64,000 nucleotides of DNA. It comes from Bacteroidaceae bacterium (lineage in GTDB: Archaea > Thermoplasmatota > Thermoplasmata > Methanomassiliicoccales > Methanomethylophilaceae). A program made the position numbers and the translations under genes. Shown here piece by piece: positions 22,301-53,110 of the stretch. The notes under the pieces were generated by a model. The model searched no databases. It saw only the letters and a program-made list of their open reading frames with translations, and was not told the DNA's origin. Where the stretch lies: NCBI GenBank assembly GCA_963656905.1, contig CAVKKO010000001.1, positions 4,476 through 68,475 of the forward strand, given 5' to 3'. Numbering within the stretch: the stretch's first letter is position 1; each line of letters starts with the position of its first letter.

Positions 22301-24838
22301 AACGGTCGGGGCATCGTTGTATTTTTTAGCATAATCCAATGCCTTCTCTAATTTGGCCCTCTGCGTCCCAGAGAGCTTGGCTGAAGATATGCCTCCCTTG
22401 GAGTTTTGGAATATCAGATTCCACATGGGCGCCAAAGACCTGATGGACCTTCTCACGCTGGGGACGTCGGCTATGCCCAGACTGGCCGCGATGGCCTTCG
22501 CGTGGTCATCCGAGCCCCATTTGGAATAATCGTATGTGTACGTGCCGTGCTGACGTTTCTTGCCCGTGCCTTTTCCGCCCGTCGCGCCAGCACCAGCACC
22601 GGCACCTGCACCGGTATACTGGCTCACGAGGCCGAGCATCTTGCGGTCGGTGGCGATCTGGGCATCGGCGTTGCCGTAGATGAACTGGAGAGTGCGCATC
22701 TTGTTCTCGAACGTCCTCAGCACATCGGCATAGTCGGGGTCGTTGGGGTCGAACGACGCTCCGCCGTCGGGGGCGGTCATGAAATGCTTGTTCCAAGAAT
22801 GCATGACGTCGAGGCAGCTCTTGGCGTAGGCCATCGAGTCGTTGTCATGGCCAGAGCTCGAGACTATGACGCTGGCCTCCTCCTCCATCTGCATCTGATT
22901 CATCAGGTACTCCTTGACAGAGTCTATCGTCGCTTTCTCGTCGTCCTGCATCGCCGACGTGTCTATATTGTCGAGCGCCATGTACTTGTCTCTGAGGAGC
23001 TCGAGCCTTCTCTTATGGGCTCTTATGCGCGAGTCGCGGACGCCGTTGTTCTTGATGACATTGTCGATGAACCTGAACGATTGCTGGTACATGTTGCTGG
23101 CGTTGATCGAGTTGTTGTACAGCGTGCCGATGGCGCGCGCCTGCGGGTCCGAGCTCCCCATCATGGCGGCGATGCGGTCCCTCATGTTGGCTGTCACCGT
23201 CCCGTTGGACCAGTAGCCGTTGTTGATTATCTCGGCCGCCACGCGCCCGTTGTTGTACGCGATGTAGGGATTGAGGCGCGACATCTCCGCCAGGAAGCGG
23301 TTGTCGCCCGTAGAGCCCATGACGGTGTTGTAGTTGCCCCCGGACACGATCTGCGACTTCCAATGGCCCAGCGCCTGTTGCTGCTTCTGCACCAGCGCTG
23401 TCTGCCTCTGCACCGCAGGGTCGTTCTGGTCCATGCCCGACAGCCTCTGGAGCTCTGCGTTGGCGGTCTTGATGAGCGTGTTGACCCCTTGCTCCGTCTT
23501 CGGGAACCCTGTCGCAGAGTCCACGTCGATGTTGAACGTAGGGGATGCGGAATGGAGCAGGTTCGATAAAGGGTTGGGCGAGCCGCCGTCCAGCATGTCG
23601 TAGGATTGCCTGCGGAGCTCCATGTTCCTGAACTTCTCCGCACGGGCGTCCCTGCCCGCCTGGTAGTTCCTGTCGGCGGCCTGCTTGGCGATGTCGCGCA
23701 TATAGCCCGCCAGATGGTCTGCCTGCTTGCCGATGAGCTTGCGCTGGCCCGGCTTCAGCGACGGGTCGTCCAGGCTCTGCCTGAGCCTCTGCTCCTCCGC
23801 CCTCATGTCCCCGACGTGCCTGCCGAGCTGCTCGGAGGTCATCTGCGATATGTCTCCGCCGTTCCTTGCCAGCGACTCGGATATCGCCCTGAACGTGTTG
23901 CCGACGACCGCCTGCCCATTGTCTCTCTCCTGCTTGTACAGCCTGTACCTGAGCGTGTCCTTGATGAGCGCAGGGTCGGCGTTCACATCTATCCCGTACC
24001 TCTGCGCGGCCCTCGACGCCATGTCGGACGCCGTCTCCATGCCCGTGATGGCGTTGGATATGAACCTGGACGACGATGATATCGCCCCGGAGTCGGTCAG
24101 TGTCATCTTGACCAGGTTCTGCGCCATGCCCCAGCCCTTGGCCGCCGCGTCGCCCCAATTCTCTATGGCGACCTCGCCTGCGGACCGCAGGAACTTCTTG
24201 GCATGCCTCAGGTTCACGCCCGCGTTCAGCGCGGCCTGCTCGTCTGCGTCGCCCGCTTGCCGCGCCGCTCCATCTTCGGGCGAGGCATCCTCATCGGCCG
24301 CGCCCGCGTCCGCCCCTGCATCTGCATCTGGGGCAGGCTCCTCCCTCGAAGCCTCGTGAGGCTCTACGGGGGTCCTGCCCTCATACTGCCCCTCGCCCTT
24401 GTTCTCCTCAGCCCATCTCTCCTTGGCCTCGTTCTCTTTCCGTATCTCGGCCATATGGTCGTCGAGGGGGACCCCCGCAGGCTCCTCGGCTCCCGGCTCT
24501 TCCGCATCGGCCCCGGGAGGCTGCCCCGGGGCGCCTTCAGGCTGTTCAGGCTCCTCCGTCTCGGGCTGTTCAGGCTCCCCGGCGGCTTCCCTTTTGCCGA
24601 GCACTCTCTTGGCCTTGTCTTTGACATTGCCGAACAGCCCGGCCTTCTCCTCCGTCTGCTCCCCCGAAGTCCCGAAAGAGTCTTCAGATGCGCCCGCGTC
24701 GCCTGATGCCTCCTTGTCGCCGAAGGCCTGGTCCTCCTTGCCCTTCTTGTCGAATATGCCGAGCGCCTTCGCCACGCGCTCGTCTTCTGATAAGAAACCG
24801 TCATAGGGCGACCCGCCGTCGCCGTTATCGTCTGCCAT
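19322..24838 (-). CDS. Giant hypothetical protein (1838 aa)
   Basis: Long ORF with TATA-like CCTTATATAT about 20 nt upstream; no recognisable catalytic motif. Confidence 0.85.
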   Translation of the reverse strand: MADDNGDGGSPYDGFLSEDERVAKALGIFDKKGKEDQAFGDKEASGDAGASEDSFGTSGEQTEEKAGLFGNVKDKAKRVLGKREAAGEPEQPETEEPEQPEGAPGQPPGADAEEPGAEEPAGVPLDDHMAEIRKENEAKERWAEENKGEGQYEGRTPVEPHEASREEPAPDADAGADAGAADEDASPEDGAARQAGDADEQAALNAGVNLRHAKKFLRSAGEVAIENWGDAAAKGWGMAQNLVKMTLTDSGAISSSSRFISNAITGMETASDMASRAAQRYGIDVNADPALIKDTLRYRLYKQERDNGQAVVGNTFRAISESLARNGGDISQMTSEQLGRHVGDMRAEEQRLRQSLDDPSLKPGQRKLIGKQADHLAGYMRDIAKQAADRNYQAGRDARAEKFRNMELRRQSYDMLDGGSPNPLSNLLHSASPTFNIDVDSATGFPKTEQGVNTLIKTANAELQRLSGMDQNDPAVQRQTALVQKQQQALGHWKSQIVSGGNYNTVMGSTGDNRFLAEMSRLNPYIAYNNGRVAAEIINNGYWSNGTVTANMRDRIAAMMGSSDPQARAIGTLYNNSINASNMYQQSFRFIDNVIKNNGVRDSRIRAHKRRLELLRDKYMALDNIDTSAMQDDEKATIDSVKEYLMNQMQMEEEASVIVSSSGHDNDSMAYAKSCLDVMHSWNKHFMTAPDGGASFDPNDPDYADVLRTFENKMRTLQFIYGNADAQIATDRKMLGLVSQYTGAGAGAGAGATGGKGTGKKRQHGTYTYDYSKWGSDDHAKAIAASLGIADVPSVRRSIRSLAPMWNLIFQNSKGGISSAKLSGTQRAKLEKALDYAKKYNDAPTVALLERRLGTSGPREPDPVSDVPPDGGDGDGGDAHVEEPEETEEPEEPVKEEVIEEDEEGDEEARYRAVIQSLADKGLLKLDDDDKEPDTILLRPGVDKRYPTAQDKKDAYWAKKDLVDKIESALADPEKAGLSEDEIEYLTRFKTTLDDFIREDEFHYDEWEKEARGDEEEDRRGDAPPAPYAKYDEEGYAQGLIDADKNKWYSIFHTNPELPKLARELFGNDYSQEALADYADVYKQTVGQRPDLAGADGGIDPVKAAEGLGMLKDSETARRLLALVEPDETLSDGGAPPGNEDERPNVLGENWNSGTGDYFSYGMMEFDDPDLNKLTHKSKGYQSFNKGLRTFMEDMGGAWNENTTAADIRPYGIAYMRLNKALGTDGKTHKLNAKPTLARRDKLRELMEDRTVDEAAMEHIRAFVEKNKQLLEEEAAPSKDPYVEARGKVLKDMALGKDARNSASALLDRFHDGEFKGLLPEGAIETEEGMKAVLALRGLFRGTKAPWTASSESTLKGYTEKLDGILKDANSSHALSELAENIKAKIASKQSKPPIKDLYDRLDNSRDEAIAELKEYLVETPQGEYAQYGFDPDEVKEKALDDYLKKFDYSGANVKGIKSTILKKLNAPLVEHQKERVRELKALFDTGKPQKTPEDRAKALESVSPGIVQRTEALCKEFIKGLGEVIDGREYRKTDLKREDAQKIGTYVMGKLKDEGLLYDFPELGRTDAGLKASEAFTDYLGRIIRPYSDEARQKWNDLEQYKPPKKNKKEPQGRKNEPFSFTHDGTEYTFDTFEQAVERVAGSENPLEDKKATLSAMFKTLVNLPSRTGRANAMGAITNAYKELTGQDYETAKNELQGMATSGPDDPGNLPDEPSNGDRDAKRSSKTWTRYGEKWSWKKVEEKLRNLEDEPKESRMEVLEDIYCAIDGVKDLQSNMGLVNQLINRYSNESGIESPTEAGLKLRTISEGRKAIKNMKRTKEKRKGKEKSHYENEMSGQ

Positions 24839-26338: not shown

Positions 26339-26757
26339 GCCTCCGTCTCGTCTGTCGGCGAGAGCTCTTCATCCAAGCTCGCTCTCGCTTCCGGCCCGTC
26401 TCCCGGGACCGTGTCCCGTATCGACGAGTCCAAGCTCTCCCGAGCTTCGCGCTCGAGCGCCTTCCTCGCCTCGATGGACAGGGCCAGGGGCCTTGCCTTG
26501 GGGGGCTCCGCGGACACCGCCCTGACCCTCGTGTAGAAGGCGTAGGGCGAGTTGCATCCGGGACAGGTCCCGGGTATCTTGCGGACGTCCTTCGGCTCCC
26601 ATTCGTGCCCGCAGCGGCAGCATTTGAACACCCTGATGGGCGACCCGCACTTGGGACAGAACGGCTTCCAGCCTCCGGGGGCCTTGAACCAGACTGCGCA
26701 TTGGGCGCACCAGACGATGCGGTCTCCCTGATGCCTGTGCTCCTTCTTTTCCGCCAT
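26335..26757 (-). CDS. Double zinc-ribbon protein
   Basis: CAQC, CPKC, CCRC, CPGC; first gene after a TATA-like box at about 26793-26800. Confidence 0.75.
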   Translation of the reverse strand: MAEKKEHRHQGDRIVWCAQCAVWFKAPGGWKPFCPKCGSPIRVFKCCRCGHEWEPKDVRKIPGTCPGCNSPYAFYTRVRAVSAEPPKARPLALSIEARKALEREARESLDSSIRDTVPGDGPEARASLDEELSPTDETEA

Positions 26758-27030
26758 ATTCGGCTCTCCTTATAAGGAGATATGGTCGGAACTATATATA
26801 GGTTAGGTCAGAGCGGCGAGAAAAATAACGGAGGGAGCTTGATTTTTAGCGGGAGACGGGGGAGGGGAAGGAGATCGGGATGGGACGGGACGGACGGGAT
26901 GAGGCGGATGGCATATGAGGAGATGTGCGGGAAAATGTGTATGGAAACATATGTGGCGATATAGTGGGAGATATGCAGAGAGGCATGTAGGGAGATATGT
27001 GAGACGATATTGGTGGATGATATTGGCTGG

Positions 27031-27104
27031 CGATATATAGGGCACGGAGATATGTAAGACGATATATAGGGCATGGAGATGTGTAAGACGATATATAGGG
27101 CACG
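27031..27104. repeat. 29-bp tandem repeat, about 2.5 copies
   Basis: CGATATATAGGGCAYGGAGATRTGTAAGA at 27031, 27060 and 27089 (partial). Confidence 0.9.
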
Positions 27105-27239
27105 AAAAAATGGAAAAAATCGTGTGTTCAACTACCTTTTCCCCGGAGATTTTTCGCCCGTATCGCGGAGATATTTTGTTACTCTCGGAGTAACAAACTA
27201 TATATTCTAGTTAAACCTACACAGTATTAGTAAGTGTGT

Positions 27240-27555
27240 AAGGCGAATGTCCTTCAATTACTATCATTCGAATGTCCTCATCCCCTTAGGGGATGGGTGG
27301 GGGCTCATTGCCCCCGTGGGTCATCCTCATGATGCTCGAATGCGGTTGCCCGATTCATTGGGCGGTCGATAGCCCGCACGCGCTTAAGGTTCCGATGGCT
27401 CAATGTCCTACGATGCAAATGTGAATCGTTTGACCCGTCAGTACGGCTCAACAGCGACTGACAAATAAGCTGGCTCGAATGAGCCAGCACATTTCATAAA
27501 GTCGGACGGGCTGGAATCAATCCCCTTCGATGGGGATGCCAGCACCGCCGACGTG
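27240..27555 (+). ncRNA. Candidate structured RNA / 5' leader
   Basis: At least seven stems including nested ones; downstream of TATA-like CTATATA at about 27198. Confidence 0.45.
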
Positions 27556-27574
27556 AACACGGAGGACTGAAATA

Positions 27575-27916
27575 ATGGACGATGTGAGGGAAGCGATTCA
27601 TGCAATCCAGCACGCCACCAAGCCAATCGACAAGGCACGCGCCGAAGCGTGGCTCATAGCCACCGCCGAGGGTGGGAAGACCCAAATCGACATGGTGGAA
27701 GATGACAAGCTACATGGGTTGGTTGCCAGAATGCAGGATTATGGCATGAAGAACGACTTCAATTTCCCCACAATGGCGGATGGCGACGACTACATTGAAA
27801 TGATGTATCAGGTCGCCGACGGCTCGATTGAGAACTACTTCTATCAATTTGACGACCTCGATGCCGAGGGGTGGGCATTGTATAAGGATATACGTGCCTA
27901 CTCATTCGGTCATTGA
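27575..27916 (+). CDS. Early hypothetical protein, acidic
   Basis: GGAGG RBS. Confidence 0.75.
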   Translation: MDDVREAIHAIQHATKPIDKARAEAWLIATAEGGKTQIDMVEDDKLHGLVARMQDYGMKNDFNFPTMADGDDYIEMMYQVADGSIENYFYQFDDLDAEGWALYKDIRAYSFGH

Positions 27917-27967
27917 GTCCGCTGAAAACGTCTTCGAAACCGCTTAGAAATTTTGGAGGAATGCAAA

Positions 27968-28156
27968 ATGACATCAAGATGCTTCATGTGCGGACGCTAC
28001 CACGACGACAAGACCCCCCTGTGCAACTCATGCACCGAGTGGGTCAAGACGAACACACGCGAGCCGACAGCCGAGGACAGGCGCGACCACTTGAAGGAGT
28101 GGACGTTCAAGGGCTACGACGAGGACGATGGAAGCGAGATATACCGCTACGAGTGA
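27968..28156 (+). CDS. Small CxxC protein
   Basis: GGAGG RBS; CFMC...CNSC. Confidence 0.7.
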   Translation: MTSRCFMCGRYHDDKTPLCNSCTEWVKTNTREPTAEDRRDHLKEWTFKGYDEDDGSEIYRYE

Positions 28157-28269
28157 AGCGCTCGGCTCGCCCGCCCCGCAGTCATGCCCGACAGGGACAA
28201 TCGGATGCGAATCCGACCTGCCGAGCATGGCGCGGAATGGCAGAAATGCCAGCCAAAGGAGGTACTGAA

Positions 28270-28665
28270 ATGACAGCAAATGTTGTTAAGGATGCCCAGC
28301 CCAAGACCATCGCCAGCGTCGCGCTGGACATGGTCAGAACCGACCGCGCCATCAAGGCGCTGGAAGCCCGCCGTGACGGGCTCAAGTCCCAGCTCATCGA
28401 AATGGGCGGGCTCGACACGACCCACACCACGACCAACTTCGTGGTCCGCATCGGAAAGGACCATGAGGTCCGCCTCGACTGCGCCAAGCTTCAGGCGCAG
28501 TACCCCGAAGCCTATGAGAGGGCTCAGCTCATCAAGGCTCAGACCCTCAGGCTCACGGCCAAGGATGCCAAGGAGACCATCGCCAGCGACGTGGTCGCAG
28601 AGTACTGCATAGAGGTGCCCTGCACCGTCAAGGTGACGGTCACGCCCAAGGAGGTGAAGGAATGA
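28270..28665 (+). CDS. Hypothetical protein resembling the C-terminal domain of YqaJ-like proteins
   Basis: GGAGGT RBS; coiled coil followed by VRLDCAKLQAQYPEAY. Confidence 0.7.
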   Translation: MTANVVKDAQPKTIASVALDMVRTDRAIKALEARRDGLKSQLIEMGGLDTTHTTTNFVVRIGKDHEVRLDCAKLQAQYPEAYERAQLIKAQTLRLTAKDAKETIASDVVAEYCIEVPCTVKVTVTPKEVKE

Positions 28666-29042
28666 GCACCTTCGTCGTCGGAAAGGAGGAGTTCAACGAG
28701 TCCCTCGACGCCGCCAAGGCGATGCTCAACCACGACAAGGCGGACGAGATGTCCGCCGAGCTCCTCAACTGGAAGTGCCTTGAGCTCCCCGCCAGCCAGA
28801 TGTTCAACTGGCTCGCCGAGACGTTCAACGACGACCCCGAGCCCTGCTGGACATACGCCGCCATCCTCGATGAGATGGCGAGCGGTTGCACAAAGACGAC
28901 CCTGCTCGGAGACGACCCCGACGCGCTTGTCGGCATCCTCGCCGACGATTGGTACGAGGAATACGCCGAGACCGCCGAGGCGCTCGGGTCCCCCGACGCC
29001 GAGCCGATGACCCTTGAGGTCACGGTGAGAATCACTATCTGA
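28662..29042 (+). CDS. Highly acidic hypothetical protein
   Basis: ATGA coupling; D/E-rich. Confidence 0.75.
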   Translation: MSTFVVGKEEFNESLDAAKAMLNHDKADEMSAELLNWKCLELPASQMFNWLAETFNDDPEPCWTYAAILDEMASGCTKTTLLGDDPDALVGILADDWYEEYAETAEALGSPDAEPMTLEVTVRITI

Positions 29043-29114
29043 CGCTCACAACCAACCGATTAAACCTTTTAGAAACCTCTTAGAAACCTTTTGAACGACA
29101 AAGAGGTGCCAAAT

Positions 29115-29462
29115 ATGAAGACTGGTGCAGGAAAGGATGTGCAGGACGTGGCAAACGTCATCACCGCGATCGAGAGCGAGACCGTTCTGAAGAACGGCGA
29201 GCACATGACCATCAAGTCGGTGTATCTCACAACCACCGTCGGGCTGGAAGCCATCGCCTACAAGACCTGGACAAGGCCCAGCGGAGAGCTCGGCCAGGAA
29301 TGGGTCATCGGGCACGGCTTCAGGGCCGAGCGCGACGAGGACGGACAGCTCCAAGTATGGTGGGGCAACGGCAGCTACGGCTACGAGACCGAGGAAGCCG
29401 CCACGGAGCGCCTCAAGAAGGAAGGCGTGGCCTGCAGGGTCTGGAAGGAGGGGATGGAATGA
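29115..29462 (+). CDS. Hypothetical protein
   Basis: GAGGTG RBS. Confidence 0.75.
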   Translation: MKTGAGKDVQDVANVITAIESETVLKNGEHMTIKSVYLTTTVGLEAIAYKTWTRPSGELGQEWVIGHGFRAERDEDGQLQVWWGNGSYGYETEEAATERLKKEGVACRVWKEGME

Positions 29463-29851
29463 ACTCCAAGCCCGTCTACTCCATCCAGTACTGGCCTGCG
29501 CTCGGCGGAGACAGGCAGTACAAGAGCTGGAAGACCGCCAAGACTGCCATCAAGCACATCAAGGCGGTCAAGGAGGAGTTCAAGCAGATATACGGGGAGG
29601 AGTGCACCATCACGTGCGAGCACATCCCCGCACACCTGTCTTGGCACACGGGCCCTGAGTTCGTCTTCAGGCCGAGCTGGGACGAATGCGCCACGACCCC
29701 CGGCTTCCAGAAGACCGAGAGTTTCACAATGGTCGACGGCCAGCAGTGTGTCAAGGTCTACAGGAACTGCAGACATGGAAGCGACTACTACGGTATCCGC
29801 ATCGCCTCTAAGGAGGAATGGGGGCGCGTCGCTCCCTCAGCGCGCGACTGA
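29459..29851 (+). CDS. Hypothetical protein
   Basis: ATGA coupling. Confidence 0.7.
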   Translation: MNSKPVYSIQYWPALGGDRQYKSWKTAKTAIKHIKAVKEEFKQIYGEECTITCEHIPAHLSWHTGPEFVFRPSWDECATTPGFQKTESFTMVDGQQCVKVYRNCRHGSDYYGIRIASKEEWGRVAPSARD

Positions 29852-29916
29852 CGCTAGCAACCATCACTGAAACGCCTTATCAAACCTCTTCCAGAAGCAA
29901 AAAGGAGAGTACCAAA

Positions 29917-30348
29917 ATGGGAAACAGAGCAGTCATCACGACAAGAGAGAACTACGAGAACAACGGCGTGGGCATTTATGTCCACTGGAACGGAGGCATG
30001 GACTCCGTCAGGGCGTTCCTGAAGTATGCCCAGCTCCGCGGGTTCAGAGCCGGGGACTACGGATGGGCCAGGCTCGTCCAGACCATCGCCAACTTCTTCG
30101 GCGGGAACCTCAGCATCGGCATCGACACGGTCGACAAGCTCGACTGCGACAACTACGACAACGGCGTCTACCTCATCGACGATGAGTTCAACATCGTCGG
30201 ACGCCTGTTCGGCCCCGAAGAAGAGCAGGACGAGCACGACATGGCCTCGATGCTGATGGGCATCGACAAGGCCCAGCCCGAGCGCGACCGCATCCTCAAG
30301 GATGACGGAACCGTCGACGAGGACAAGGTCCAGAACATGGCCCTCTGA
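29917..30348 (+). CDS. Phage-type hypothetical protein
   Basis: MGNRAVI...IYVHWNGG...DNGVYLI motifs; AGGAG RBS. Confidence 0.8.
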   Translation: MGNRAVITTRENYENNGVGIYVHWNGGMDSVRAFLKYAQLRGFRAGDYGWARLVQTIANFFGGNLSIGIDTVDKLDCDNYDNGVYLIDDEFNIVGRLFGPEEEQDEHDMASMLMGIDKAQPERDRILKDDGTVDEDKVQNMAL

Positions 30349-30443
30349 CATCAGGCTCACAACCAACAGGTGTTTATACTCTCAAAGTATACGCCAATCA
30401 AACCCCTTCGAAACCGTTTCAAAAGACCAAGGAGGAATCATAC

Positions 30444-30665
30444 ATGGATATGAACGACAGAGAGAAGCTCATGAGAACGATTTACCTGGCACGCAGGCGC
30501 CAGGCGGACAAGCTGGAGGCGCTCGGATCCCCCGCGCGCAACCGCGAGTTCATGAACGGGTACGAGGAGGCGCTGGACGACATATGCCGCGCCTACGGCC
30601 TCGTCTACGAGTCGGTCATCGACCCGGAGGCGTGGGAGGATGCAGGCGAGGAGGTGCCGGAATGA
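30444..30665 (+). CDS. Hypothetical protein
   Basis: GGAGG RBS. Confidence 0.7.
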   Translation: MDMNDREKLMRTIYLARRRQADKLEALGSPARNREFMNGYEEALDDICRAYGLVYESVIDPEAWEDAGEEVPE

Positions 30666-30988
30666 GCAAGGCCTGGGAGTACCTCGCAGGGGGCCGCGTC
30701 TTCGAGACCAAGGAGGATGCGGCTCTGTTCCTCGTGAACACCGAGGTCCCGATGGCCGCCTGGGCCGCCATGAAGGCCCTGGGCATCGACGGATCGGACA
30801 GGCTCGCAGCCATGCGCCTGTCCGATGTCCTGGACAAGCACATGGACAAGACGGGCAAGCACGAGCTGTTCCTGGAGGCCTACACGGCGCTAGGCGGACA
30901 CGCGATATTCACCCGCCTGGAGGACCTGCCCAAGGAGGACGATGGCGTGCTGGGCACCCGCATGGTCGGGGTCCGCATCCTCAAGTGA
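30662..30988 (+). CDS. Hypothetical protein
   Basis: ATGA coupling. Confidence 0.7.
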   Translation: MSKAWEYLAGGRVFETKEDAALFLVNTEVPMAAWAAMKALGIDGSDRLAAMRLSDVLDKHMDKTGKHELFLEAYTALGGHAIFTRLEDLPKEDDGVLGTRMVGVRILK

Positions 30989-31065
30989 CGCTAGCAACCA
31001 TCCTCGGCGCGCATACGCGCGCCCTAAACCCTTTCGAAACAGCTTAGACCAACGGAGGTAACACA

Positions 31066-31737
31066 ATGAGTTACAGGCAAGTTCTAGGAAACAGCACAAA
31101 GATGAAGATGACCGAGGCCCAGCACCCCGGCAACATCTTCAGGAACTTCAGCATCTCGGCCCAGCCGGGAGTGTGCAGGTTCTGCACGTTCTGCGACGCA
31201 TGCTACACCAGGTCGGGGCGCATGGCCCTGGACACGGCCCAGCAGTCCTACCGCGAGAACCTGGAGATGGCCCGCGACGGGTCGCTCTGGGAGCGCCTGG
31301 AGCCGGAGCTTCAGGCTCTGGAGCGCAAGGCCGCCAGAGAAGGCAAGCAGGTGCGCATCAGGGTCCACGACACAGGGGACTACTTCAGCAAGGCCTATCT
31401 CAAGGCATGGCTGGACACCGCCGAGGCGCACCCGTCCGTCACATTCTACAGCTACACCAAGGCCGTAGGATGGGTCAAGCAGGCCCAGGATGCCGGGGAG
31501 GTCCCGGAGAACCATCGGTTCGTGTTCAGCATGGGCACGACCCAGGAGCTTCTGATAGACCCGTCCGACAGGGTCGCGGCGATATTCGGGGCAGAGCGCG
31601 CCGTTCCGCCCGGCTGGAGCGACGGCAGCCACGATGACTATTGGGCCAGCGAGCCTGCGGGGAATGTGCTCCTCAGATACCACGGCCCCAAGGCCAAGGC
31701 GTTCGAGGCCCTCCCGTCCTGGATGGTGATGGCATGA
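31066..31737 (+). CDS. GP88-like protein (radical-SAM-like Cys motif)
   Basis: CRFCTFCDACY, RIRVHDTGDYFS, FYSYTK. Confidence 0.75.
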   Translation: MSYRQVLGNSTKMKMTEAQHPGNIFRNFSISAQPGVCRFCTFCDACYTRSGRMALDTAQQSYRENLEMARDGSLWERLEPELQALERKAAREGKQVRIRVHDTGDYFSKAYLKAWLDTAEAHPSVTFYSYTKAVGWVKQAQDAGEVPENHRFVFSMGTTQELLIDPSDRVAAIFGAERAVPPGWSDGSHDDYWASEPAGNVLLRYHGPKAKAFEALPSWMVMA

Positions 31738-32249
31738 CCGCCAGCATCACCTCCAGGCTCATGGCCGTCCATCTGGACCTCGACCCTAGAGATCCCCATG
31801 TCAGATGCATCGGGGATGCGGTCATCGTCCAGAAGGACCGCATGGACGCGGACGTGTACACGCTGAACGCCGAAGGCGGCATCAGCCATCAGCACGTCGC
31901 AGGCGATGCCTACGCGATGCTGGAGCATCTCGACCCGGCAGGGGAGAGGGAGGTCAGGACCGCCGAGCAGGTATGCCTGTACGGCCCGGACATGCTCATG
32001 GGCTGGGACACGTTCAGATGGGCCGTCTACGGCCTGTACTGCGAGGACTACTTCAGGACGCACGAGGACGGCATGGCTCCGGCGTGCTTCAGCGAGTTCC
32101 TGAGCAACGACTACCTGGACTACGACGCCATGCACGACCTGTTCAGTCTGCCCGGGCACTCCCTGTATTTCGAGTGCTGGGAGGATGACCCGGAGGTCCT
32201 GCTGGCCGATTGGGATGTGTACATGGAGACACGCACCTGGGAGGACTGA
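31734..32249 (+). CDS. Acidic hypothetical protein
   Basis: ATGA coupling. Confidence 0.7.
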   Translation: MTASITSRLMAVHLDLDPRDPHVRCIGDAVIVQKDRMDADVYTLNAEGGISHQHVAGDAYAMLEHLDPAGEREVRTAEQVCLYGPDMLMGWDTFRWAVYGLYCEDYFRTHEDGMAPACFSEFLSNDYLDYDAMHDLFSLPGHSLYFECWEDDPEVLLADWDVYMETRTWED

Positions 32250-32341
32250 CGCTACTACCGACAAGTAATATATACTCCGAGAGTATATACTACTCCAAAC
32301 ACCTTTCCTAAACCTTTTCGAAACCAAAGGAGAAATCGAAA

Positions 32342-33058
32342 ATGTCAGCAAATCTGATATCAAACGAGCAGCTTGAAGAAATCGTCAAAGCCGAAGCCGC
32401 CAAGCACGGCTTCACAGATGCGGATGCACGCTTCGTGTCCATCGCAGAGTTCAAGGTCAGGTGGACCAGGAGCGACAAATGGATATCCATGGACTTCAGC
32501 GACTACCTGCGCGTCATCTCGCTCACGGCCCTCAAGGACCTGGTCGCAGAGACCCTCCGGGGCATCAAGACCGGAGGCAAGCCTCAGTACGGCGCGGCGC
32601 TCCGCCGCTCTGTCGGGGCCAAGAAGTTCCTGAAGGCCAACCAGGACAAGCACCTGACCAGGCTCAAGCTGTGCCACCACACCGAATACGAGAACGTGCC
32701 GAGCCTCTACGAAGCCTACCGCAGGGTCATCGACAAGGGCCTTCTGGAGCATGACCCGGACTTCAGGATGGCCTGGAAGGCCTGGCCTGTGGCCGAGATG
32801 CCTTTCAAGGCCAGCGGAGTGTTCAAGACCGCCGTCTTCAACACCAGCCTGTTCATGGATGCGGAGGGCGGCCCCGTGAAGACGGACGATGACTGCCTGG
32901 ACTACCTGGTCTACTGCGCCGCCCTCCAGGCGGGCCGCCTGCTCCCGACCGAGGAGGAGGTCGAGGAGATGAAGGTCCTGGCAGAATCCTACCCGGGCAG
33001 GGGCGCCATCCTGGCGAAGCTCGACGCGATGGGAATCAATGGGAGGGTGTTCGAATGA
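32342..33058 (+). CDS. YgjP/DUF45-like protein lacking HExxH
   Basis: EFKVRWTRSDKWISMDFSDYL, YRRVIDKGLLEHDPD, LDYLVYCAALQ. Confidence 0.65.
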   Translation: MSANLISNEQLEEIVKAEAAKHGFTDADARFVSIAEFKVRWTRSDKWISMDFSDYLRVISLTALKDLVAETLRGIKTGGKPQYGAALRRSVGAKKFLKANQDKHLTRLKLCHHTEYENVPSLYEAYRRVIDKGLLEHDPDFRMAWKAWPVAEMPFKASGVFKTAVFNTSLFMDAEGGPVKTDDDCLDYLVYCAALQAGRLLPTEEEVEEMKVLAESYPGRGAILAKLDAMGINGRVFE

Positions 33059-33357
33059 AGTACATCGTCAACGGCAGGACCCGCAACCAGGCCCAGGACG
33101 CGGCATTCGCGTTCCTGGACCTCCCGGAGAGGATGCGCCACGACATCGTCAGGGAGGTGCTGGAATGGGCCGGGGTCACCTCCTCCCCCCTGGCAGGAGA
33201 CGCTCCGATCGAGTGGCTGGTAGAGCTGCTCACCTGCTCGGACTGCGGCGAGGATTTCATCCTGGCCGCGCTCGGCAGGATGGAGGCGGCCGCCAAGAAG
33301 ACAGGCAAGGACACAGGCACAGGCGGGCTCTTCGTCCGCCCGGAGGGAGACGAATGA
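33055..33357 (+). CDS. Hypothetical protein
   Basis: ATGA coupling. Confidence 0.7.
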   Translation: MKYIVNGRTRNQAQDAAFAFLDLPERMRHDIVREVLEWAGVTSSPLAGDAPIEWLVELLTCSDCGEDFILAALGRMEAAAKKTGKDTGTGGLFVRPEGDE

Positions 33358-33731
33358 CTGACGTGCCGAACACCGGGATGCTCATATCCATCTGCATCCT
33401 GGGGACCCGCCTCTGCAGGACCGCCGAGCCGTCCGACTACTTCGAGATGGATGACTGCGTGGTGGTCCGTCGCAAGGCCCACACGCCCCCGGTCTTCGAC
33501 ATCTTCATGATGGACGAGGAGTCGAACATCTATGAGGCGTCCTACTCCCCCGCCAGCAAGGAGATCGCAGAAACCTGTGGCAAGCTCCTCCTGATGGGCC
33601 TCTCGCCCGTCGGCTGCTGGCTGGACGAGGGCGGCGTCCCAGTGTCCATCGGGAACGCGTACCCGGTCATGCACGCTGACGAGGTCCTGCGTGCCATAGG
33701 CCCCGGATACACCGTCGGATGGCACGACTGA
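33354..33731 (+). CDS. Hypothetical protein
   Basis: ATGA coupling. Confidence 0.65.
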   Translation: MTDVPNTGMLISICILGTRLCRTAEPSDYFEMDDCVVVRRKAHTPPVFDIFMMDEESNIYEASYSPASKEIAETCGKLLLMGLSPVGCWLDEGGVPVSIGNAYPVMHADEVLRAIGPGYTVGWHD

Positions 33732-33816
33732 ACCTATGGGGATATATACTCTCGGTGTATATCCATGCATAAACACCCTTCCCAAACCTTTTCGAAACCA
33801 AAAGGAGACAAGAGAT

Positions 33817-34434
33817 ATGTACAAGCTCATCACGAAGGACAAGAAGACCGCACGCTGGACCGCCGTCAAGGCCGTCGAGTCCGATATCATCGGCCAGCAC
33901 CTCTACAACTACATCGCCGCCCAGCCGCTCAGGCTGAGGGGCGCGATGCTGCAGAGCATCGCCAAGGACTACATCCAGATGCGCAAGGAGAGCGGCGAGG
34001 GCCGGGAGGACGCCGAGGGCGAGCTGATGGCCCGCCTGCCCGTGGACGTCATCGCCGACGTGCTGGACTGGAGATTGGAGAACCCCGGGGGCGATGAGCC
34101 TGAGGGGCTGCCCCTGCGCCTGCTCGCCGCGTTCAGGGCCCACCCCTCCCCTGCGTTCAGGCTCGTCTGGACAGACGACCATTGCCCCCACGAGCACATG
34201 ACCCTGGACGTCATCAAGGAGGACGGCTCCGGGCTGGAGCAGATGACCTTCTGCCTGCCGACCATAGCTCTCGGCTGCGAGAACGTGGCCGAAGCCATCT
34301 CCGACTACGACAAGGTCTACGGGACGTATCTGGGCAGGCTCGCCTTCAGGTCCCTGTACATCGCCAAGGCGCACGCAGGGGCGTTCATCGACGCGGCGGA
34401 CATACTGAACCTGGAGCTGGAGGACAGGCTCTGA
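33817..34434 (+). CDS. Hypothetical protein
   Basis: AGGAG RBS. Confidence 0.75.
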   Translation: MYKLITKDKKTARWTAVKAVESDIIGQHLYNYIAAQPLRLRGAMLQSIAKDYIQMRKESGEGREDAEGELMARLPVDVIADVLDWRLENPGGDEPEGLPLRLLAAFRAHPSPAFRLVWTDDHCPHEHMTLDVIKEDGSGLEQMTFCLPTIALGCENVAEAISDYDKVYGTYLGRLAFRSLYIAKAHAGAFIDAADILNLELEDRL

Positions 34435-34484
34435 AACCATTCATGCCCGGGATCCCGGGCATATCCTTCAAAGAGGTGTCAAGA

Positions 34485-34982
34485 ATGTATCAGATAATAC
34501 TATGCAAGACAGACGGGAACATAGAGAACCCCTTCTTCTACGACCTGTACGCGGATGCGAAGGCGAAGGGGCAGGAGATGTGGGATGCCATCGTCAAGGG
34601 CCGCGACCTCAGGTACTCAGGGGCGCACGTCATCTGCGACGGCAAGACGCTCTGCTCCTGGACCCTCGGCTCCGAGACCGCCCGCGAGCTCAAGTTCTTC
34701 GATACCCGCACCGGGTACCGCTACGACCGCGAGACCGCCTCCGGGCTGCTCGCCCACAGGTACTCGCGCTGGCAGTTCAGGGTGGACCTCTCCGAGGAGT
34801 TCGGCTCCATCAAGCTGGGCCGCCTCGGCCTGGAGTTCTCCGCAGGCACCGTCCTCTGGGCGTTCCCGGAGGAGTTCGAGTACGCCTACAAGAGCGAGCT
34901 GCTCAGGATGATGGAGGAGATCGAGAAGGACGGCGCGGAATACTGCAACATCACCCTGGCAGAGGAATGGTGGGACCAATGA
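34485..34982 (+). CDS. Hypothetical protein
   Basis: GAGGTG RBS. Confidence 0.75.
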   Translation: MYQIILCKTDGNIENPFFYDLYADAKAKGQEMWDAIVKGRDLRYSGAHVICDGKTLCSWTLGSETARELKFFDTRTGYRYDRETASGLLAHRYSRWQFRVDLSEEFGSIKLGRLGLEFSAGTVLWAFPEEFEYAYKSELLRMMEEIEKDGAEYCNITLAEEWWDQ

Positions 34983-35272
34983 AGGCGAGAGTCAGAGGGG
35001 CAAGGAACGTGGCCACGGAGATGCGCCATGTCCCCAGAGGATTCCATGTCGAAGTCTGGTCGTACAAGGACGAGAAGGGAGATGTGCAGCTCTACACGAG
35101 CGAGTACCTCTCGCAGAACTCCTGGACCATCAACCACCCAGAGGGCGAGCGCAGGCTGGACGAGCACATCTATGATGTGCGCGTCGAGTACGCCTACGAC
35201 CACGTGACCCTGGAGCGCATCCTCAAGGAGGCGGCGCACAGGGCATGGCCCGAGGTGGAGTTCACGGCCTGA
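34979..35272 (+). CDS. Hypothetical protein
   Basis: ATGA coupling. Confidence 0.7.
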   Translation: MKARVRGARNVATEMRHVPRGFHVEVWSYKDEKGDVQLYTSEYLSQNSWTINHPEGERRLDEHIYDVRVEYAYDHVTLERILKEAAHRAWPEVEFTA

Positions 35273-35348
35273 ACCCCACGAAGGGATGCCCCCTAGGGGC
35301 GCCCCGGCAAACCCTTTATACATTCAGAGTATACACAGGAGAGATACA

Positions 35349-35657
35349 ATGGGTATCAACGGAGAGATGCAAGAGATGAGAGCAGAGCAGGCCGCCAAGG
35401 AGAAGGAGGCCATGGAGCAGGCGCGCATCGAACGCCATGCGGAGCGCATCGCACGCGAGCAGGCCAAGGCCTTCATCGTGGAGGCGATGGTGCACGAGTG
35501 CAGGGACAGAGGGCCTTCGGAGCCAGAGGAGTACGACAAGGGGTTCCACGACGGCTACACCTCCTGCCTGATGGACCTGGCGAGAGAGAACGGCTTGAGC
35601 TGGGCGAAGCTGGCGGATGATGCGCTCCGGGAGCTGGGGCTGTACAGATGCCCGTGA
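35349..35657 (+). CDS. Hypothetical protein
   Basis: AGGAG RBS. Confidence 0.7.
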   Translation: MGINGEMQEMRAEQAAKEKEAMEQARIERHAERIAREQAKAFIVEAMVHECRDRGPSEPEEYDKGFHDGYTSCLMDLARENGLSWAKLADDALRELGLYRCP

Positions 35658-35848
35658 AACTGACACCCAAAGAGGTCCTGGACCTCACGCGGATAGGCGC
35701 AGGCGCAGAGCTGCTCATGACAGGCGACGTGAGCAAGGAGACGGCGGACAGGTACTGGACAGCATACCGCCGGTGGCTGGAAGAAGCCGGGCTGGACGCA
35801 GACGAATGGATGCGGATGCTCGCAGACCCTTGGCGGCTCTTGAGGTGA
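35648..35848 (+). CDS. Hypothetical protein
   Basis: Overlapping last gene of the block. Confidence 0.65.
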   Translation: MPVKLTPKEVLDLTRIGAGAELLMTGDVSKETADRYWTAYRRWLEEAGLDADEWMRMLADPWRLLR

Positions 35849-35880
35849 GCCGCCGCCAAACCTCTTCCCCTTTCTCGACC

Positions 35881-36022
35881 TACCAAGAAATTTGTCATCT
35901 ACAACTTTTTTGGTAGGTCGATCATCTACCACAAAACAAGTAACCTACCAATTTTTTGGTAGGTCGGCTCCGGGGCACGACTTACCACAAAACAAGTAAC
36001 CTACCAATTTTTTGGTAGGTCG
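35881..36022. repeat. Three 40-bp direct repeats containing the palindrome CCTACCAA-TTTT-TTGGTAGG
   Basis: Identical copies at 35927-35966 and 35983-36022; degenerate copy at 35881-35920. Confidence 0.9.
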
Positions 36023-38058
36023 ATCGCGGGGGAACGGCGGAACGCCGAGTGAACGGCGCTCCAAAGGGGCCTTTTGACCGTTTTTCCCGTCCTCTCCCCC
36101 TCTCCCGCCCCTCTCCCCCTGCCTCCGGACCCTGTCGTTCCCAGGGTGGGGTTGAACAGGATTTGAACAAGAAGGTAGGTGTGCACCGTGCTAACACGTA
36201 GCATACATCCAACGGTGGCGGGTGAGTCAGTTCTTCTATATGAAAACAGGTGGTATTTTGAGTGTTTTTGTTCTTTTTCAGACAAAAATACTTGAATGCC
36301 CGGTAAAAGTGTCATCTTAACACGAATGTGAAAATTCGTGCTATTTTTAAACGACATTACGGCACAACGGGTGACATAATGCGCTTTAAAATGTCCGATA
36401 TCAGACTGTTAATAAGAATCCGACAAATAAAAAGTAATACATTTCGAAAGATTGTCGGAAAATGTATATAAACGCCGATTATTTTTTCAGCAAGTATTAA
36501 ATACCAACCTTAAGTTGCATCCAACCGTTTCTCGTAGGATTTCTACGAATTTCGAAATCGGTAATCAGCATACCAAAATCTTACCTATTTAGGAGAGCCT
36601 ATATTGCAGTTCTGCAATCATCCAACTCGCAGGAAACGCACAGAATCGGCGAAAAACGGGCGATTCGCGGCATTCTGCGACGACCGAGGCGGCGCCGGGA
36701 TCCGTTCGAAGAGACGCACGGAAACGGCTCTAGAATCGACGAAGGCGCATCGAGAGGTGCCGGGACAGCTACCATACCTGCAGAATCGCTTCTACGGGGC
36801 TTCTAGACGGCAAGAATCGCATTTCCCCTCATCGCAGTCGGGGAGCTGCCGCCTACGCGTCACACGTACTATTACGCGCGCGTAATTATTACGCGAGCAC
36901 GAGCGGCGCCGTTTTTCGACCGATATATCGTGTGGTACTGTGGTCACTTCTCCCTTATTCCACGCCAGAAAACATGGTGTACATACATATTCAGCTCTAC
37001 GTTTCTTAAATTGCTCGTTGGTCGATTGATTTTTATACTAGTGGTTTTTCCCTCCCAAAATAGTTAGATTTGTCTAACTTTTTTTCCGGAATGACAACTC
37101 TTTTGGTAGCTACCAATTTTTTGGTAGGTCACATCCATACATACCGACATTACCCCGCATATTCCTACCACATCCCCATCTCCCCCCTTCTCTATTTCAA
37201 AAAACCCCCTTTCTTTCTAAAATAATGTATATACATCCCCATCCGAAACATACTCGCCCATACATATTCACCTTAATATCAAAACGCTCTCAATGCACAA
37301 ATATGTCCACCAAAAAAATTGTAGCTACCAAAAAACTGGTAGCTCCTCGACCCCTTCTATCTCCCCGATCTCTCCGTTTTCTCCCCTTGTTTTCCCCTTC
37401 CTGAGGGAATTTTTAATCATCCAACCTCTCCCCTCTTTTTGACCCTCTGTCTAACTCCGACGTTCTATCTCACATACCGGACGGGGTATGGTCGGAATAT
37501 GTAGGTGCCACTTTTGGGTACCACATTTTTCGGCTTCTGATATTAACCGTTTGCGAAAATCTGTCACAAATCACTCTAAGTTTTTTAGACCTCGTTTATT
37601 TATAACTTTCGCAAAAATCCAACTCGTTTAAATACTCCGCTTTCGGTAATATTTGCCCGAAATATTACCTAGCCCTTTTCCCTCCCTCCCCCTCGCCATC
37701 CTCGGAATCCGCCCTCAGACCGCCCCGATACGCCAAGAAACACCCTCCATCCCCATCCGAAACGCAGGAAAACCGCCCGAATCTGCTCAGCGGCGCCAGC
37801 CTCGTCGACGGGAGACGCAGTCCCCGGAGACGATGCGCCAGCCGCTGCATGGATGATATCCGGTGATTTCTATCCATTGTCTTCCCTCCCTCCATCAGAC
37901 CCATCCAACTCGAACCATACCCCCGGGGGGTATCCTTTCAGCCTCTTCTCCCTCCATGCAGGCCGGGCGTCCGATCGGGCATGCTCGATATCCCGTTCTC
38001 CCCTACCTGCATACTCTCAAAGTAAATCTATATATAGCTCCCCGTCTATCTCCTCATC

Positions 38059-38571
38059 ATGGACCAAAGAGAGTCTATCGGCTCGCCGAGAGGCGAGGAC
38101 ACTAGAGGAGCGAAGACGATGTGCGCCCTTTGCGGGGAGCAGCCCGTCGCAGGAGGCCCCGACGCCCTCCTGGGCGAGCCCCTGTGCAGGGGCCCCGTCT
38201 GCAGATGGTGCTACGAGACGAGAGTGGAGCCTGCGCGCAGGCATGCCGACGGCGGGAGCTGGGCGGCGCACGGCGCATGGGCCCTCAGGACGCCCGAGGG
38301 CAGGCTGGTCATCGGCGCCACGGCGGACGAGCTCGTCATGGGCATGATGGACAACGGGTACTTCGGGACGGCCCCGGCGTCGTCGGACGAGGGGGCGGAG
38401 GCGGACATCGACGCCGTAGAGAGATGCATAAAGGCCGCGGAGACGTCGCCTCGGGGCAGGCCCATCGAGGTCGGGGCGTTCGGCAGGCGGTACGTCATAC
38501 CATGGTACGGCCCTGCGCTGCTGTCGGGGCCGAGAGGCGTGGTGCAGACGGTGGAGAGGGTGATGCCATGA
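38059..38571 (+). CDS. CxxC hypothetical protein, first gene of the middle operon
   Basis: TATA-like CTATATATAG about 25 nt upstream; CALC...CRWC. Confidence 0.65.
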   Translation: MDQRESIGSPRGEDTRGAKTMCALCGEQPVAGGPDALLGEPLCRGPVCRWCYETRVEPARRHADGGSWAAHGAWALRTPEGRLVIGATADELVMGMMDNGYFGTAPASSDEGAEADIDAVERCIKAAETSPRGRPIEVGAFGRRYVIPWYGPALLSGPRGVVQTVERVMP

Positions 38572-39059
38572 GCTACAGGCCCGGAGACCCCGTCCGCGCC
38601 GCGGGGAGCAGCGCCGCCGGCGCGGCGATGGACGCGTGCGAGTCCGCCCAGAAGCTCTGCCTGATGGGCCATCCGCGCAGCGCCCTGGTCTGGTCCCACG
38701 TGGCCCGTGCGGCCCTGGACGAGCTGGACGCCGTGCTGGAGGGCCTCGTCGGGGAGGATGACGGGGAGAGCTCAGAGCCCGAGCGTCCCTCGAAGAGCCC
38801 CTTCGAGGACCCTGCGAGGGACCCTCTGGACAAGGTCATGAGCCATCCCGAGGACCTGCCCGGCAGGCTCGTGCAGGACGTGGAAGAGCAGTATGGCGTC
38901 GCGTTCTACGTGCTGAAGAAGTCCGCCGAGAACGTCAAAGAGAACGACCTGCATATCGGCTTCCAGAGAGCAATCCTGCGCAGCCTTGCCAGGCATATAG
39001 AGGGCACTCTGGAGAGGACCGACGCGAAGATGCTCGAAGAGATAGGAAAGGAGGAATGA
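38568..39059 (+). CDS. Hypothetical protein
   Basis: ATGA coupling; C-terminal half is similar to the next gene. Confidence 0.7.
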   Translation: MSYRPGDPVRAAGSSAAGAAMDACESAQKLCLMGHPRSALVWSHVARAALDELDAVLEGLVGEDDGESSEPERPSKSPFEDPARDPLDKVMSHPEDLPGRLVQDVEEQYGVAFYVLKKSAENVKENDLHIGFQRAILRSLARHIEGTLERTDAKMLEEIGKEE

Positions 39060-39385
39060 GGATGACGAAGAAGAACAATGGAAAGAACGCTGCAGATGGG
39101 CTTTTGGAGGACATCGCCGAGGGCCTGGACCCTGTGTCCAAAATCATGATGCTCTGCCCGGACAGGCTGTCCGACGAGCTCGTGAGGAAGCTGGATGCGA
39201 AGTACGGTGCCACGCTCTTCATGATGGAGTCCTGCGTCAGGGACGTCAAGGCCCGCGATGGGAAGGATGACCCCTACGCCATAGGCGCCACGAGGGCCAT
39301 GCTGCGCTTCCTCGCCAAGCACATAGAGGTCGTCCTGAAGGAGACGGATGCGATGGTCCTTGCCGAGACGGAGGAGGGGGAATGA
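39056..39385 (+). CDS. Hypothetical protein
   Basis: ATGA coupling. Confidence 0.75.
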   Translation: MRMTKKNNGKNAADGLLEDIAEGLDPVSKIMMLCPDRLSDELVRKLDAKYGATLFMMESCVRDVKARDGKDDPYAIGATRAMLRFLAKHIEVVLKETDAMVLAETEEGE

Positions 39386-40773: not shown

Positions 40774-41346
40774 ATGAAGGGATACAGAGCGATAATGAAC
40801 AAGTGCGGGGCACCGGAGTGGACTGCGACAGAGCGGCCCATCGACGCAGGCTCCGATGAAGAAGCGATGGACATCGCGCAGAAGATGTACGACGAGGCCC
40901 GCATATCAGAGAGGCTGGACGACGGGCGCAACTGGGACGAGGACAGATGCTTCAAGGGCGCATGGCCGATATTCTTCCTCATGGACGGGAGCAGGCTGGT
41001 CAAAGACTACGCCTATAACGACATCGAGAGGAAGATGGACGAGGGGATGCGCATCCATCAGGTCCGCTACGGCTGCAGGGTGACGCATTTCATCAGCATG
41101 CCCGATGTCTCCGACATCACGGACATCCCCGTGCACCTGCTGGGGCGCCCTCTTTCAAGCGAATGTGTGGCCATGGCAGAGGGCATCGGATTCGCGCTGG
41201 ACGATATGGAGAGGAAATGGAATGCCATGACCGACGAGCAGAAAGACAGGTTCGTGTCCGACGGAGGGCGCTTCGAAGTCTGCGCGGAAGGCGTGCTGGT
41301 GCGCGACTTCGTGCAGGAGCGCATCGACAGCAAGAAGGGGGAATGA
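40774..41346 (+). CDS. Hypothetical protein
   Basis: GGAGG RBS. Confidence 0.7.
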   Translation: MKGYRAIMNKCGAPEWTATERPIDAGSDEEAMDIAQKMYDEARISERLDDGRNWDEDRCFKGAWPIFFLMDGSRLVKDYAYNDIERKMDEGMRIHQVRYGCRVTHFISMPDVSDITDIPVHLLGRPLSSECVAMAEGIGFALDDMERKWNAMTDEQKDRFVSDGGRFEVCAEGVLVRDFVQERIDSKKGE

Positions 41347-43344: not shown

Positions 43345-43347
43345 GAA

Positions 43348-44344: not shown

Positions 44345-44470
44345 CGCCTGGAAACCCCTTTCAACAAACCCTTTACCCATATGATTATATACTCTGAGCG
44401 TATACAGAATCATGACGAGGTCGGTGTCCTCTCGGGCGCCGAGATATCATCCTCGCCAGGATTTGAGTAC

Positions 44471-53087: not shown

Positions 53088-53110
53088 CATCCTCTGAAAC
53101 CTCTTACCCT

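Follow-up and report, generated by a model that had tools for sequence, protein, structure and literature searches.

A variable, probably early-expressed gene array with composite intergenic spacers in a tailed virus of a methanogen

Results

An array of small genes on a viral contig

The window analysed here, a stretch of 64,000 nucleotides (G000:C1:4476-68475), is part of an 83,739-bp contig from a genome bin with McrA and carries an array of 19 small plus-strand genes, g1 to g19, at 27575-35848 (coordinates refer to the window unless a contig is named). Among the products of the contig are head proteins, a primase, an SNF2 helicase and Erf-like and YqaJ proteins. Its capsid protein shares 64% identity with that of Caudoviricetes sp. 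vir335 (NC_134205), a complete virus of 83,070 bp whose record gives Methanomassiliicoccales as host and whose gene order matches that of the contig; the core proteins of the two mostly share 50-78% identity. Given this capsid and gene order together with the viral gene set, the contig (~84 kb) thus represents a near-whole tailed virus of a methanogen. Of 173 further genomes of the family, 9 have capsid homologues, those in the G094 and G114 bins being 47% and 40% identical to the capsid here. A close relative of this virus was not found with spacer patterns against viral contigs (0 matches) or with capsid and g17 queries, and a GP88 profile search returned distant matches only (at most 38% identity).

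The array is organised in units of one to three small genes between spacers; every gene ends with TGA, and two non-coding stretches flank the whole. The nine spacer starts listed in the initial annotation were all confirmed, to which we add the gene at 27575, a 116-bp spacer at 28154, the genes up to 35848 and the GGAGG..GAATGA repeats at gene junctions. Counts over 10 spacers below comprise the nine plus the 28154 spacer.

All parts of the array lie on the plus strand. Gene g1 (27575-27916; 113 aa, acidic, no family) is followed by a spacer with AAAC units and a ribosome-binding site (RBS) and without a TATA box (27914-27967), by g2 (27968-28156; 62 aa, CxxC zinc ribbon-like, PF18912 under cut-off) and by the 116-bp spacer with its many hairpins (28154-28269). 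The next unit (28270-29042) comprises g3 (131 aa), with a weak match to a RecE-like C-terminal part and a homologue in vir335, and g4 (126 aa, isoelectric point 4.05), coupled via GGAGG..GAATGA at 28650. The spacer behind it (29040-29114), also without TATA box, contains TGACGCTCACAACC, three AAACCYYT units and an RBS, and its first 14 bp are identical in G094:C112 and G114:C10. It precedes g5, which has a homologue in the G129 array, and g6 (29115-29851; junction repeat 29447). A spacer with TGACGCTAGCAACCATC, two AAAC units and an RBS (29849-29916) leads to g7 (29917-30348; 143 aa), whose family is widespread in viruses and host genomic islands. Downstream of g7 a spacer with GCTCACAACCAAC, a TATA box at 30373, a palindrome at 30375-30391, AAAC units and an RBS (30346-30443) is followed by g8 and g9 (30444-30988; junction repeat 30650), and a spacer with TGACGCTAGCAACCATC, a GC-rich hairpin, AAAC units and an RBS (30986-31065) by g10 and the acidic g11 (31066-32249).

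The second half starts with a spacer at 32247-32341 (TGACGCT, TATA box at 32269, palindrome at 32271-32287, and a 37-bp stretch at 32297-32333 that includes the RBS), followed by g12, with homologues in the G127 array and on a host contig, g13 and g14 (32342-33731; junction repeats 33042 and 33342). A similar spacer at 33729-33816 (TATA box at 33743, palindrome at 33745-33761, 37-bp stretch with RBS at 33771-33808) precedes g15 (33817-34434; 205 aa, no family). After a spacer with AAACC, a GC-rich hairpin and an RBS (34432-34484) follow g16, with four unnamed homologues, and g17, with homologues in G129, G124, vir335, L284 and L285 (34485-35272). The last spacer (35270-35348) combines a hairpin, AAACC, a TATA box at 35315, a palindrome at 35317-35333 and an RBS; g18 and g19 (35349-35848) end the array, and AAACCTCTT comes next at 35858.

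The spacers are patchworks of enriched motifs

A typical spacer is made up of a stop-anchored motif, a hairpin or palindrome, two or three AAACCYYT units and an RBS. The sharing of parts between spacers that the initial annotation described held up in detail: TGACGCTAGCAACCATC is present solely at 29849 and 30986, GCTCACAACCAAC solely at 29044 and 30355, AAACC units lie at 29062, 29073 and 29084, and a stretch of ~37 bp is common to the spacers at 32297-32333 and 33771-33808. The related element before the methyltransferase gene (44342) is likewise present and additionally contains the palindrome. Most spacers had been said to carry a palindrome, and palindromes or hairpins occur in six of the nine listed (none in those starting near 27917, 29040 and 29849). 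Several were described as opening with TGACGCT at the stop codon; CGCT directly follows the TGA of 4 of the 19 genes in the array, compared with 1 of 81 genes elsewhere in the virus and 4 of 1494 in the host.

We compared the 10 array spacers with 38 other viral and 937 host upstream regions and found the motifs enriched over both, with the repeats far above chance. AAACCYYT is present in 7 of 10 array spacers, 3 of 38 other viral and 21 of 937 host regions, TTCGAAAC in 5, 0 and 1, respectively, and TATAC-N7-GTATA in 4, 0 and 0; all five copies of TTCGAAAC on the contig are in spacers. Of 45 spacer pairs, 3 have exact words of at least 13 bp in common, compared with 2 among 4000 pairs from the host, and the spacers are a patchwork rather than copies, the longest perfect identity being 19 bp. 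Screening of 26700-38200 against Rfam gave no match at E<=1. The spacers are likely composite transcription signals and not dedicated recombination sites.

The stop-anchored motif, TGACGCT(CA/AG)CAACC, starts at the stop codon of unrelated genes. Its 14-bp pattern has nine matches in 174 genomes (three here, two in the G094 array, one in the G114 array and three elsewhere), and a reversed control has four; the matches in G050, G120 and G153 were judged to be chance. At the start of the G094 array (L231:4227-6420, on G094:C112) two spacer types alternate, each occurring three times around unrelated genes; one consists of a hairpin and T8, in the manner of a bacterial terminator, directly before the RBS, and the second is A/C-rich.

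AAACCYYT follows stop codons in the host

The AAACCYYT motif as defined in the virus was scored on host contigs within the first 45 nt after the stop codon. It was found in the sense orientation in 26 of 561 regions vs 2 in antisense (p=2e-6), between convergent host genes in 6 of 172 cases, in 1 of the 232 windows lying upstream of divergent genes and at none of 221 ends of long tandem gaps. Codon scores are higher for the 38 host genes preceding the motif than for 523 others (p=3e-4). Judging from their N-termini, the genes before tandem host units presumably encode ribosomal protein S2, nucleoside diphosphate kinase and proteasome beta, and on host contig C96 the motif lies between genes which we take to encode proteasome beta and aCPSF1. 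AAACCYYT is thus likely to be a strand-specific host 3'-end signal, and its placement after host stops suggests that the virus borrows a host post-stop signal. Among 27 tandem cases in the host only 6 have a TATA box behind the motif, which may therefore be either a processing site or a leaky terminator. In archaea, aCPSF1-dependent termination takes place at U tracts (PMC8716108).

Two other roles of the units were considered. A function as promoters, composed of a transcription factor B recognition element and a TATA box, was rejected, as the host does not put the units upstream of divergent genes; strictly phased DNA-binding repeats were weakened by the variable unit spacing (of 25 intervals, 9 measure 11 nt and 7 measure 13 nt). 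The first AAAC unit lies 27-28 nt after the TATA box in three spacers, at the predicted transcript start.

A palindrome overlaps the predicted promoters

A TATA box is predicted in 4 of 10 spacers, and in all four array copies a 17-bp palindrome, TATACTCT-N-AGAGTATA, overlaps it. A matrix built from these four sites identified three more on the contig, at 44388 (25.3 bits), 18208 (20.8 bits) and 38010 (18.5 bits); the next-best score on the contig is 9.5 bits, and the host rate at site score is 0.04 per 83.7 kb. The site at 44388 belongs to the spacer-type element 5' of the C5 methyltransferase gene (44342-44404, plus strand), which combines two AAACC units, a TATA box and the palindrome. The copy at 18208-18224 lies at a TATA-like box before a small gene, the one at 38010-38026 just 5' of the TATA box (38029) of a second small-gene block. 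All seven copies are intergenic or at promoters, on or beside TATA-like boxes, and in G129 two similar sites lie outside the array. This distribution points to a virus-specific operator for one regulator. A host regulon was rejected, since 61 other genomes of the genus contained 0-2 matches, equal to the reversed control. The 80-aa gene at 18235 was considered as a candidate for the regulator and received no support.

Gene content and order vary among relatives

Arrays were found at the same place in G129:C3, G094:C112, G114:C10, G128:C2, vir335, L276, L284 and L285, and array-bearing fragments in G124:C75 and G127:C64; in G107 the array is off its contig, and in L283 and L286 no array lies beside the zinc-finger gene. 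Few of the 19 genes are shared directly (E<=1e-3), with zero to four in the relatives that are complete or nearly so: four with vir335, three with G129, two each with G127 and G124, one each with G094 and G128, and none with G114. GP88 is the sole family in all 11 arrays found, being distant in G114 and G128. Order changes as well, with g7 ahead of GP88 here but behind it in vir335, and the number and neighbours of the spacers vary among the relatives, all of them distant. The array had been proposed to be a cassette-like platform, with fixed gene content and order in relatives as the counter-case; both content and order were found to change.

Homologues of g7 also occur in small host islands. 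Seven of eight such loci examined have a nearby protein of 315-410 aa that is common to them and that we read as an integrase, and a neighbour gene of g7 islands recurs in the G114 array. In the islands L120-L126, from several host genomes, the g7 family lies inside a conserved run of three to four small genes, and the variable neighbours resemble restriction-modification genes by eye.

Exchange in close virus pairs maps to gene junctions

Three close virus pairs provided nine gains, losses and swaps. This count leaves aside, for G129/G124, unaligned ends and a C-terminal difference of 75 bp and, for L284/L285, any allele swaps within the first collinear block. Three events are indels with RBS(-ATGA) repeats at both sides, one of them a perfect 16-bp GGAGGAAGAGGAATGA; four have one end at a start/stop junction, two are allele swaps ending 15-30 nt within a gene, and none of the nine lies between two long spacers. 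In G129/G124 (77% nucleotide identity) a 305-bp gene is flanked on both sides by GGAGGTG..GAATGA, and a 263-bp gene has an RBS at one end and, at the other, the TGA of a spacer with a hairpin. In vir335/L276 (mostly 95-100%) a 475-bp indel lies between copies of the perfect repeat GGAGGAAGAGGAATGA, the homologues of g3 and g7 show the allele swaps with ends 15-30 nt within the genes, and the methyltransferase and the last gene are swapped up to the final TGA. In L284/L285 (91-95%) we found an insertion of ~870 bp between two RBS, a 924/373-bp replacement with its end at a start codon, and a difference of ~420 bp starting at a GGAGG..GAATGA junction.

ATGA-type overlaps serve translational coupling (PMC6728339). 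The pattern GGAGG-N4-6-GAATGA is present at 5 of the 7 such overlaps of the array, compared with 12 of 29 for the contig and 11 of 134 for the host. Gene exchange at these 15-16-bp RBS-plus-ATGA junctions implies that translational coupling signals double as recombination substrates. The viral ERF/YqaJ recombination genes named in the initial annotation are present: a YqaJ-like exonuclease gene and a gene for an Erf-like annealing protein (phrog_155) lie at 12518-14485 on the minus strand and are the putative engine of exchange. No PF00589 integrase was detected on the viral contigs of five bins and none is annotated in the complete vir335, which is why we infer homeologous annealing by Erf/YqaJ as the route. 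The proposal that the spacers themselves offer the homology for exchange was not supported by these pairs, which are spacer-poor: none of the nine rearrangements occurred between two long spacers, and spacer-poor relatives shuffle too. Crossover between spacers may nevertheless take place in this virus, as the identity starting exactly at the TGA would favour.

Array products

Only one array protein, g10, scored above a family cut-off (GP88, PF17338). Its model (predicted local distance difference test score of 94) has radical S-adenosylmethionine (SAM) enzymes as its top 15 VIA hits (best Z 7.7, root-mean-square deviation 4.8 over 174 residues) and no Foldseek match at E<=0.001; a radical-SAM-like fold of middling similarity is predicted. 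For g7 a confident fold prediction gave no fold match (best Z 3.2). No array protein matched an anti-defence or host-takeover family in Pfam, PHROGs or NCBIfam. Three array proteins are strongly acidic, and the median net charge per residue is -0.055 in the array and -0.029 in other small viral proteins, a small difference. The arrays of G129 and vir335 include DNA methyltransferases, which fit an anti-restriction role, and a host-takeover role of the array is plausible because of its position and turnover.

The upstream end of the array

Purine-rich repeats, the CCGTATCGCGG site, a TATA box and a 350-nt leader follow one another upstream of g1, all on the plus strand. Three GATATATAGGG repeats with a 29-bp period form the purine-rich tract (27032-27100), and relatives have similar tracts. 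Just 5' of the first promoter, the CCGTATCGCGG site (27158-27168) has one variable base and is otherwise invariant in five of five aligned viruses, occurs also in L276, L284 and L285, and is absent from G094 and G128. The pattern CCGTAT(C/A)GCGG is present in 8 of 10 arrays with an assembled upstream end and twice in host contigs; upstream-site matches in G109:C19, L271, L272, L275 and L277-L280 were judged to be chance. A palindrome with the core TACTC-N3-GAGTA and the TATA box behind it (27175-27204) form the predicted main early promoter, with a weak position weight matrix score of 7.3, and the predicted leader (27225-27574) is rich in hairpins (z = -4.65; no Rfam match). The region resembles a genome end behind which the first-entering genes would lie, and we infer that the 27158 site is a genome-end or packaging site; the array is likely to be expressed early.

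Other features of the contig

Beyond the array, a non-coding region (35880-37340) contains four TACC..TTTTTTGGTAGGTC-type repeats and is likely a replication origin; relatives have different repeats at the same place, and its counterpart adjoins the primase gene in G129 and vir335. The second small-gene block contains paralogous gene pairs at 38571-39385 and 41343-43878, with 37% identity each. The C5 cytosine methyltransferase gene (44381-46219) harbours an intein (Hint domain); homologues in relatives are without the insertion and lie at other places, some at the array end. A viral tRNA-Gln gene (~53110-53185) has a AAACCTCTT unit upstream with no TATA box between, and 3' of it two AAAAAGTAATACAT repeats flank a TATA box, followed by a gene at 53237. 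An 1838-aa protein is encoded at 19322-24838; the gene at the same place in relatives encodes 1292-3722 aa with homology confined to a part, and the idea of a virion RNA polymerase was dropped as Pfam gave no match. Directly left of the window lies a diversity-generating retroelement (G000:C1:204-1870), with a template repeat near 593 and a variable repeat near 300 whose mismatches are at adenines in nine of nine cases (best 60-nt window). Its gene at G000:C1:851-1870, which we take to be reverse transcriptase-like, has homologues on G107:C199 and host contig C2, and none was matched in vir335.

Discussion

We consider it probable that the array is a hypervariable, likely early block of a methanogen tailed virus in which the spacers provide transcription signals and genes are exchanged at gene junctions. 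Host RNA polymerase would start at the TATA box at 27199 and at four internal TATA boxes, and one viral dimeric regulator bound to the palindromes would control the methyltransferase, the second small-gene block and the array jointly. Leaky 3'-end formation of the host type at the AAACCYYT tracts (termination or processing of the aCPSF1 type) would divide the block into unit mRNAs, and in three spacers a new transcript would begin with the first unit, 27-28 nt downstream of the TATA box. Genes would enter and leave mainly via Erf/YqaJ annealing at RBS-plus-ATGA junctions of ~15 bp and at conserved gene ends. A spacer would be copied together with the gene behind it, rendering the incoming gene expressible and giving rise to the patchwork identities. 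The earlier idea that the repeats drive expression is retained in part: they are enriched and signal-like, but AAACC behaves in the host as a post-stop signal and not as a promoter, and a TATA box is present in only 4 of 10 spacers.

Several observations weigh against this interpretation. Samples of 200 kb from two other, complete genomes show only a weak post-stop bias of AAACCYYT (3 vs 0 of 76; 3 vs 2 of 40), and some host copies of the motif stand before a tRNA or before genes without a TATA box between. U runs are scarce in the motif, whereas terminators of M. maripaludis have U4 tracts (PMC8716108). The TGACGCT..CAACC motif is absent from host post-stop regions, occurs in distant viruses before or behind unrelated genes, and is not accounted for by a terminator role. 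Searching identified no regulator gene for the palindrome. The three close pairs are spacer-poor viruses, so that the breakpoint test is indirect for the spacer-rich virus studied here, and promoters, 3' ends and the timing of expression are predicted from sequence.

The strongest competing use of these observations is a platform of the promoter early stem-loop (PeSL) type, where the long spacers are crossover sites and recombination excises a circle of spacer plus gene that re-enters at another spacer. Motif identity that starts exactly at the TGA of unrelated genes (four here, three in G094, one in G114), identities of 13-19 bp inside the array that fit crossover between spacers, the near-duplicate spacers alternating around unrelated genes in G094, one indel with an end at the TGA of a hairpin spacer, and the Erf and YqaJ genes on the contig would all agree with it; yet none of the nine events lies between two long spacers, the spacer-poor relatives vir335, G129 and L284 shuffle equally, and perfect spacer identity does not exceed 19 bp, so we regard this route as unlikely.

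The AAAC units could instead operate on RNA as elements of translation or stability, being a G-poor, unstructured standby or protein-binding site before the RBS of one long early transcript, without any termination. A G fraction of 0.03-0.19 in the unit tracts, their variable spacing, the location of units inside the predicted 5' leader in three spacers and the absence of a promoter to restart transcription from 6 of 10 spacers are compatible with this, but the host motif is tied to the upstream stop and not to the downstream start (0 of 221 long tandem gap ends) and lies between convergent genes in 6 of 172 cases, which makes a purely RNA-level role quite improbable. Antitermination is a further option: the tracts would be terminators, and TGACGCT..CAACC would load a viral read-through factor. 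The motif indeed stands just before the tracts, mostly in TATA-less spacers, and is missing after host stops while being conserved in distant viruses; however, several TATA-less spacers and many relatives are without it and no candidate factor was found, and we judge this design very unlikely. There is a slim chance, too, that AAACCYYT is an undescribed terminator of the lineage and that TGACGCT..CAACC serves both as a nut-like antiterminator site and as an integrase-free crossover point between distant viruses; the array would in that case be an operon under antitermination control in an archaeal virus.

The array marks the site of the fastest-changing genes of these methanogen viruses, with GP88 as the only constant family, and yields a short list for anti-defence and host-takeover screens. 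AAACCYYT is a testable candidate 3'-end signal for the host lineage, and the palindromes are a candidate viral regulon of seven sites. Apparently new are a post-stop motif borrowed from the host, a set of seven palindromes, a stop-anchored motif that distant viruses have in common and exchange at RBS-ATGA junctions; the literature searched, which did not include the original description of vir335, contained no description of these spacers or of the host motif.

Among known systems, the PeSL elements of the T4-like phages RB49 and phi1 are spacers of ~100 bp with promoter, terminator and RBS between small orphan genes in a hypervariable region, and were proposed to supply incoming genes with their own signals (PMC2839356, PMC4122927); in the comparison reported there, 10 of 14 differential genes adjoin a PeSL (PMC2839356). 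Excised mini-circles are a further feature of the PeSL type. The array spacers likewise lie between non-core orphan genes in a hypervariable region. They differ from the PeSL by an archaeal TATA box and a host post-stop tract in place of a sigma-70 promoter and a stem-loop terminator. As far as can be judged from their sequence, they do not provide a promoter per element, with a TATA box, overlapped by the palindrome, in 4 of 10 spacers, and their candidate counterpart of the terminator is the post-stop motif in 7 of 10 spacers and hairpins in 6 of 9. Element-gene-element indels as described for PeSL were 0 of 9 here, counted in spacer-poor pairs.

The class I repeats of halovirus HF2 are intergenic repeats of 56-58 bp with conserved blocks among early and middle genes whose functions are unknown, conserved across related viruses and proposed to bind viral regulators; all nine repeats tested were promoters, and their positions are kept in relatives (PMC8707807, PMC7230728). 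The array resembles these repeats in belonging to an archaeal tailed virus and in having repeat blocks confined to intergenic or promoter sites. In contrast to HF2, most spacers here are without a TATA box, the flanking genes change and position is not conserved among the relatives, which are distant, and no motif is common to the spacers and the HF2 motifs quoted in PMC8707807. Closest at hand, vir335 has its array at the same place, with four shared genes and the upstream CCGTATCGCGG site, but few long spacers, no palindrome and no TGACGCT motif.

Early or host-takeover regions lie at genome ends in the T7 early region, the T5 pre-early region and the SPO1 terminal repeat, and with these the array has in common small same-strand genes, strong RBS, a non-coding leader and short repeats nearby. 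Integron cassette arrays also consist of units of one to three genes with related elements starting at stop codons between them, whereas no integrase was detected on the viral contigs here and exchange maps to gene junctions. Overall, the array works like the PeSL cassettes of T4-type phages and the repeats of HF2, but has no promoter in every element, no fixed position among its distant relatives and no spacer-bounded indel among the nine events of the spacer-poor pairs.

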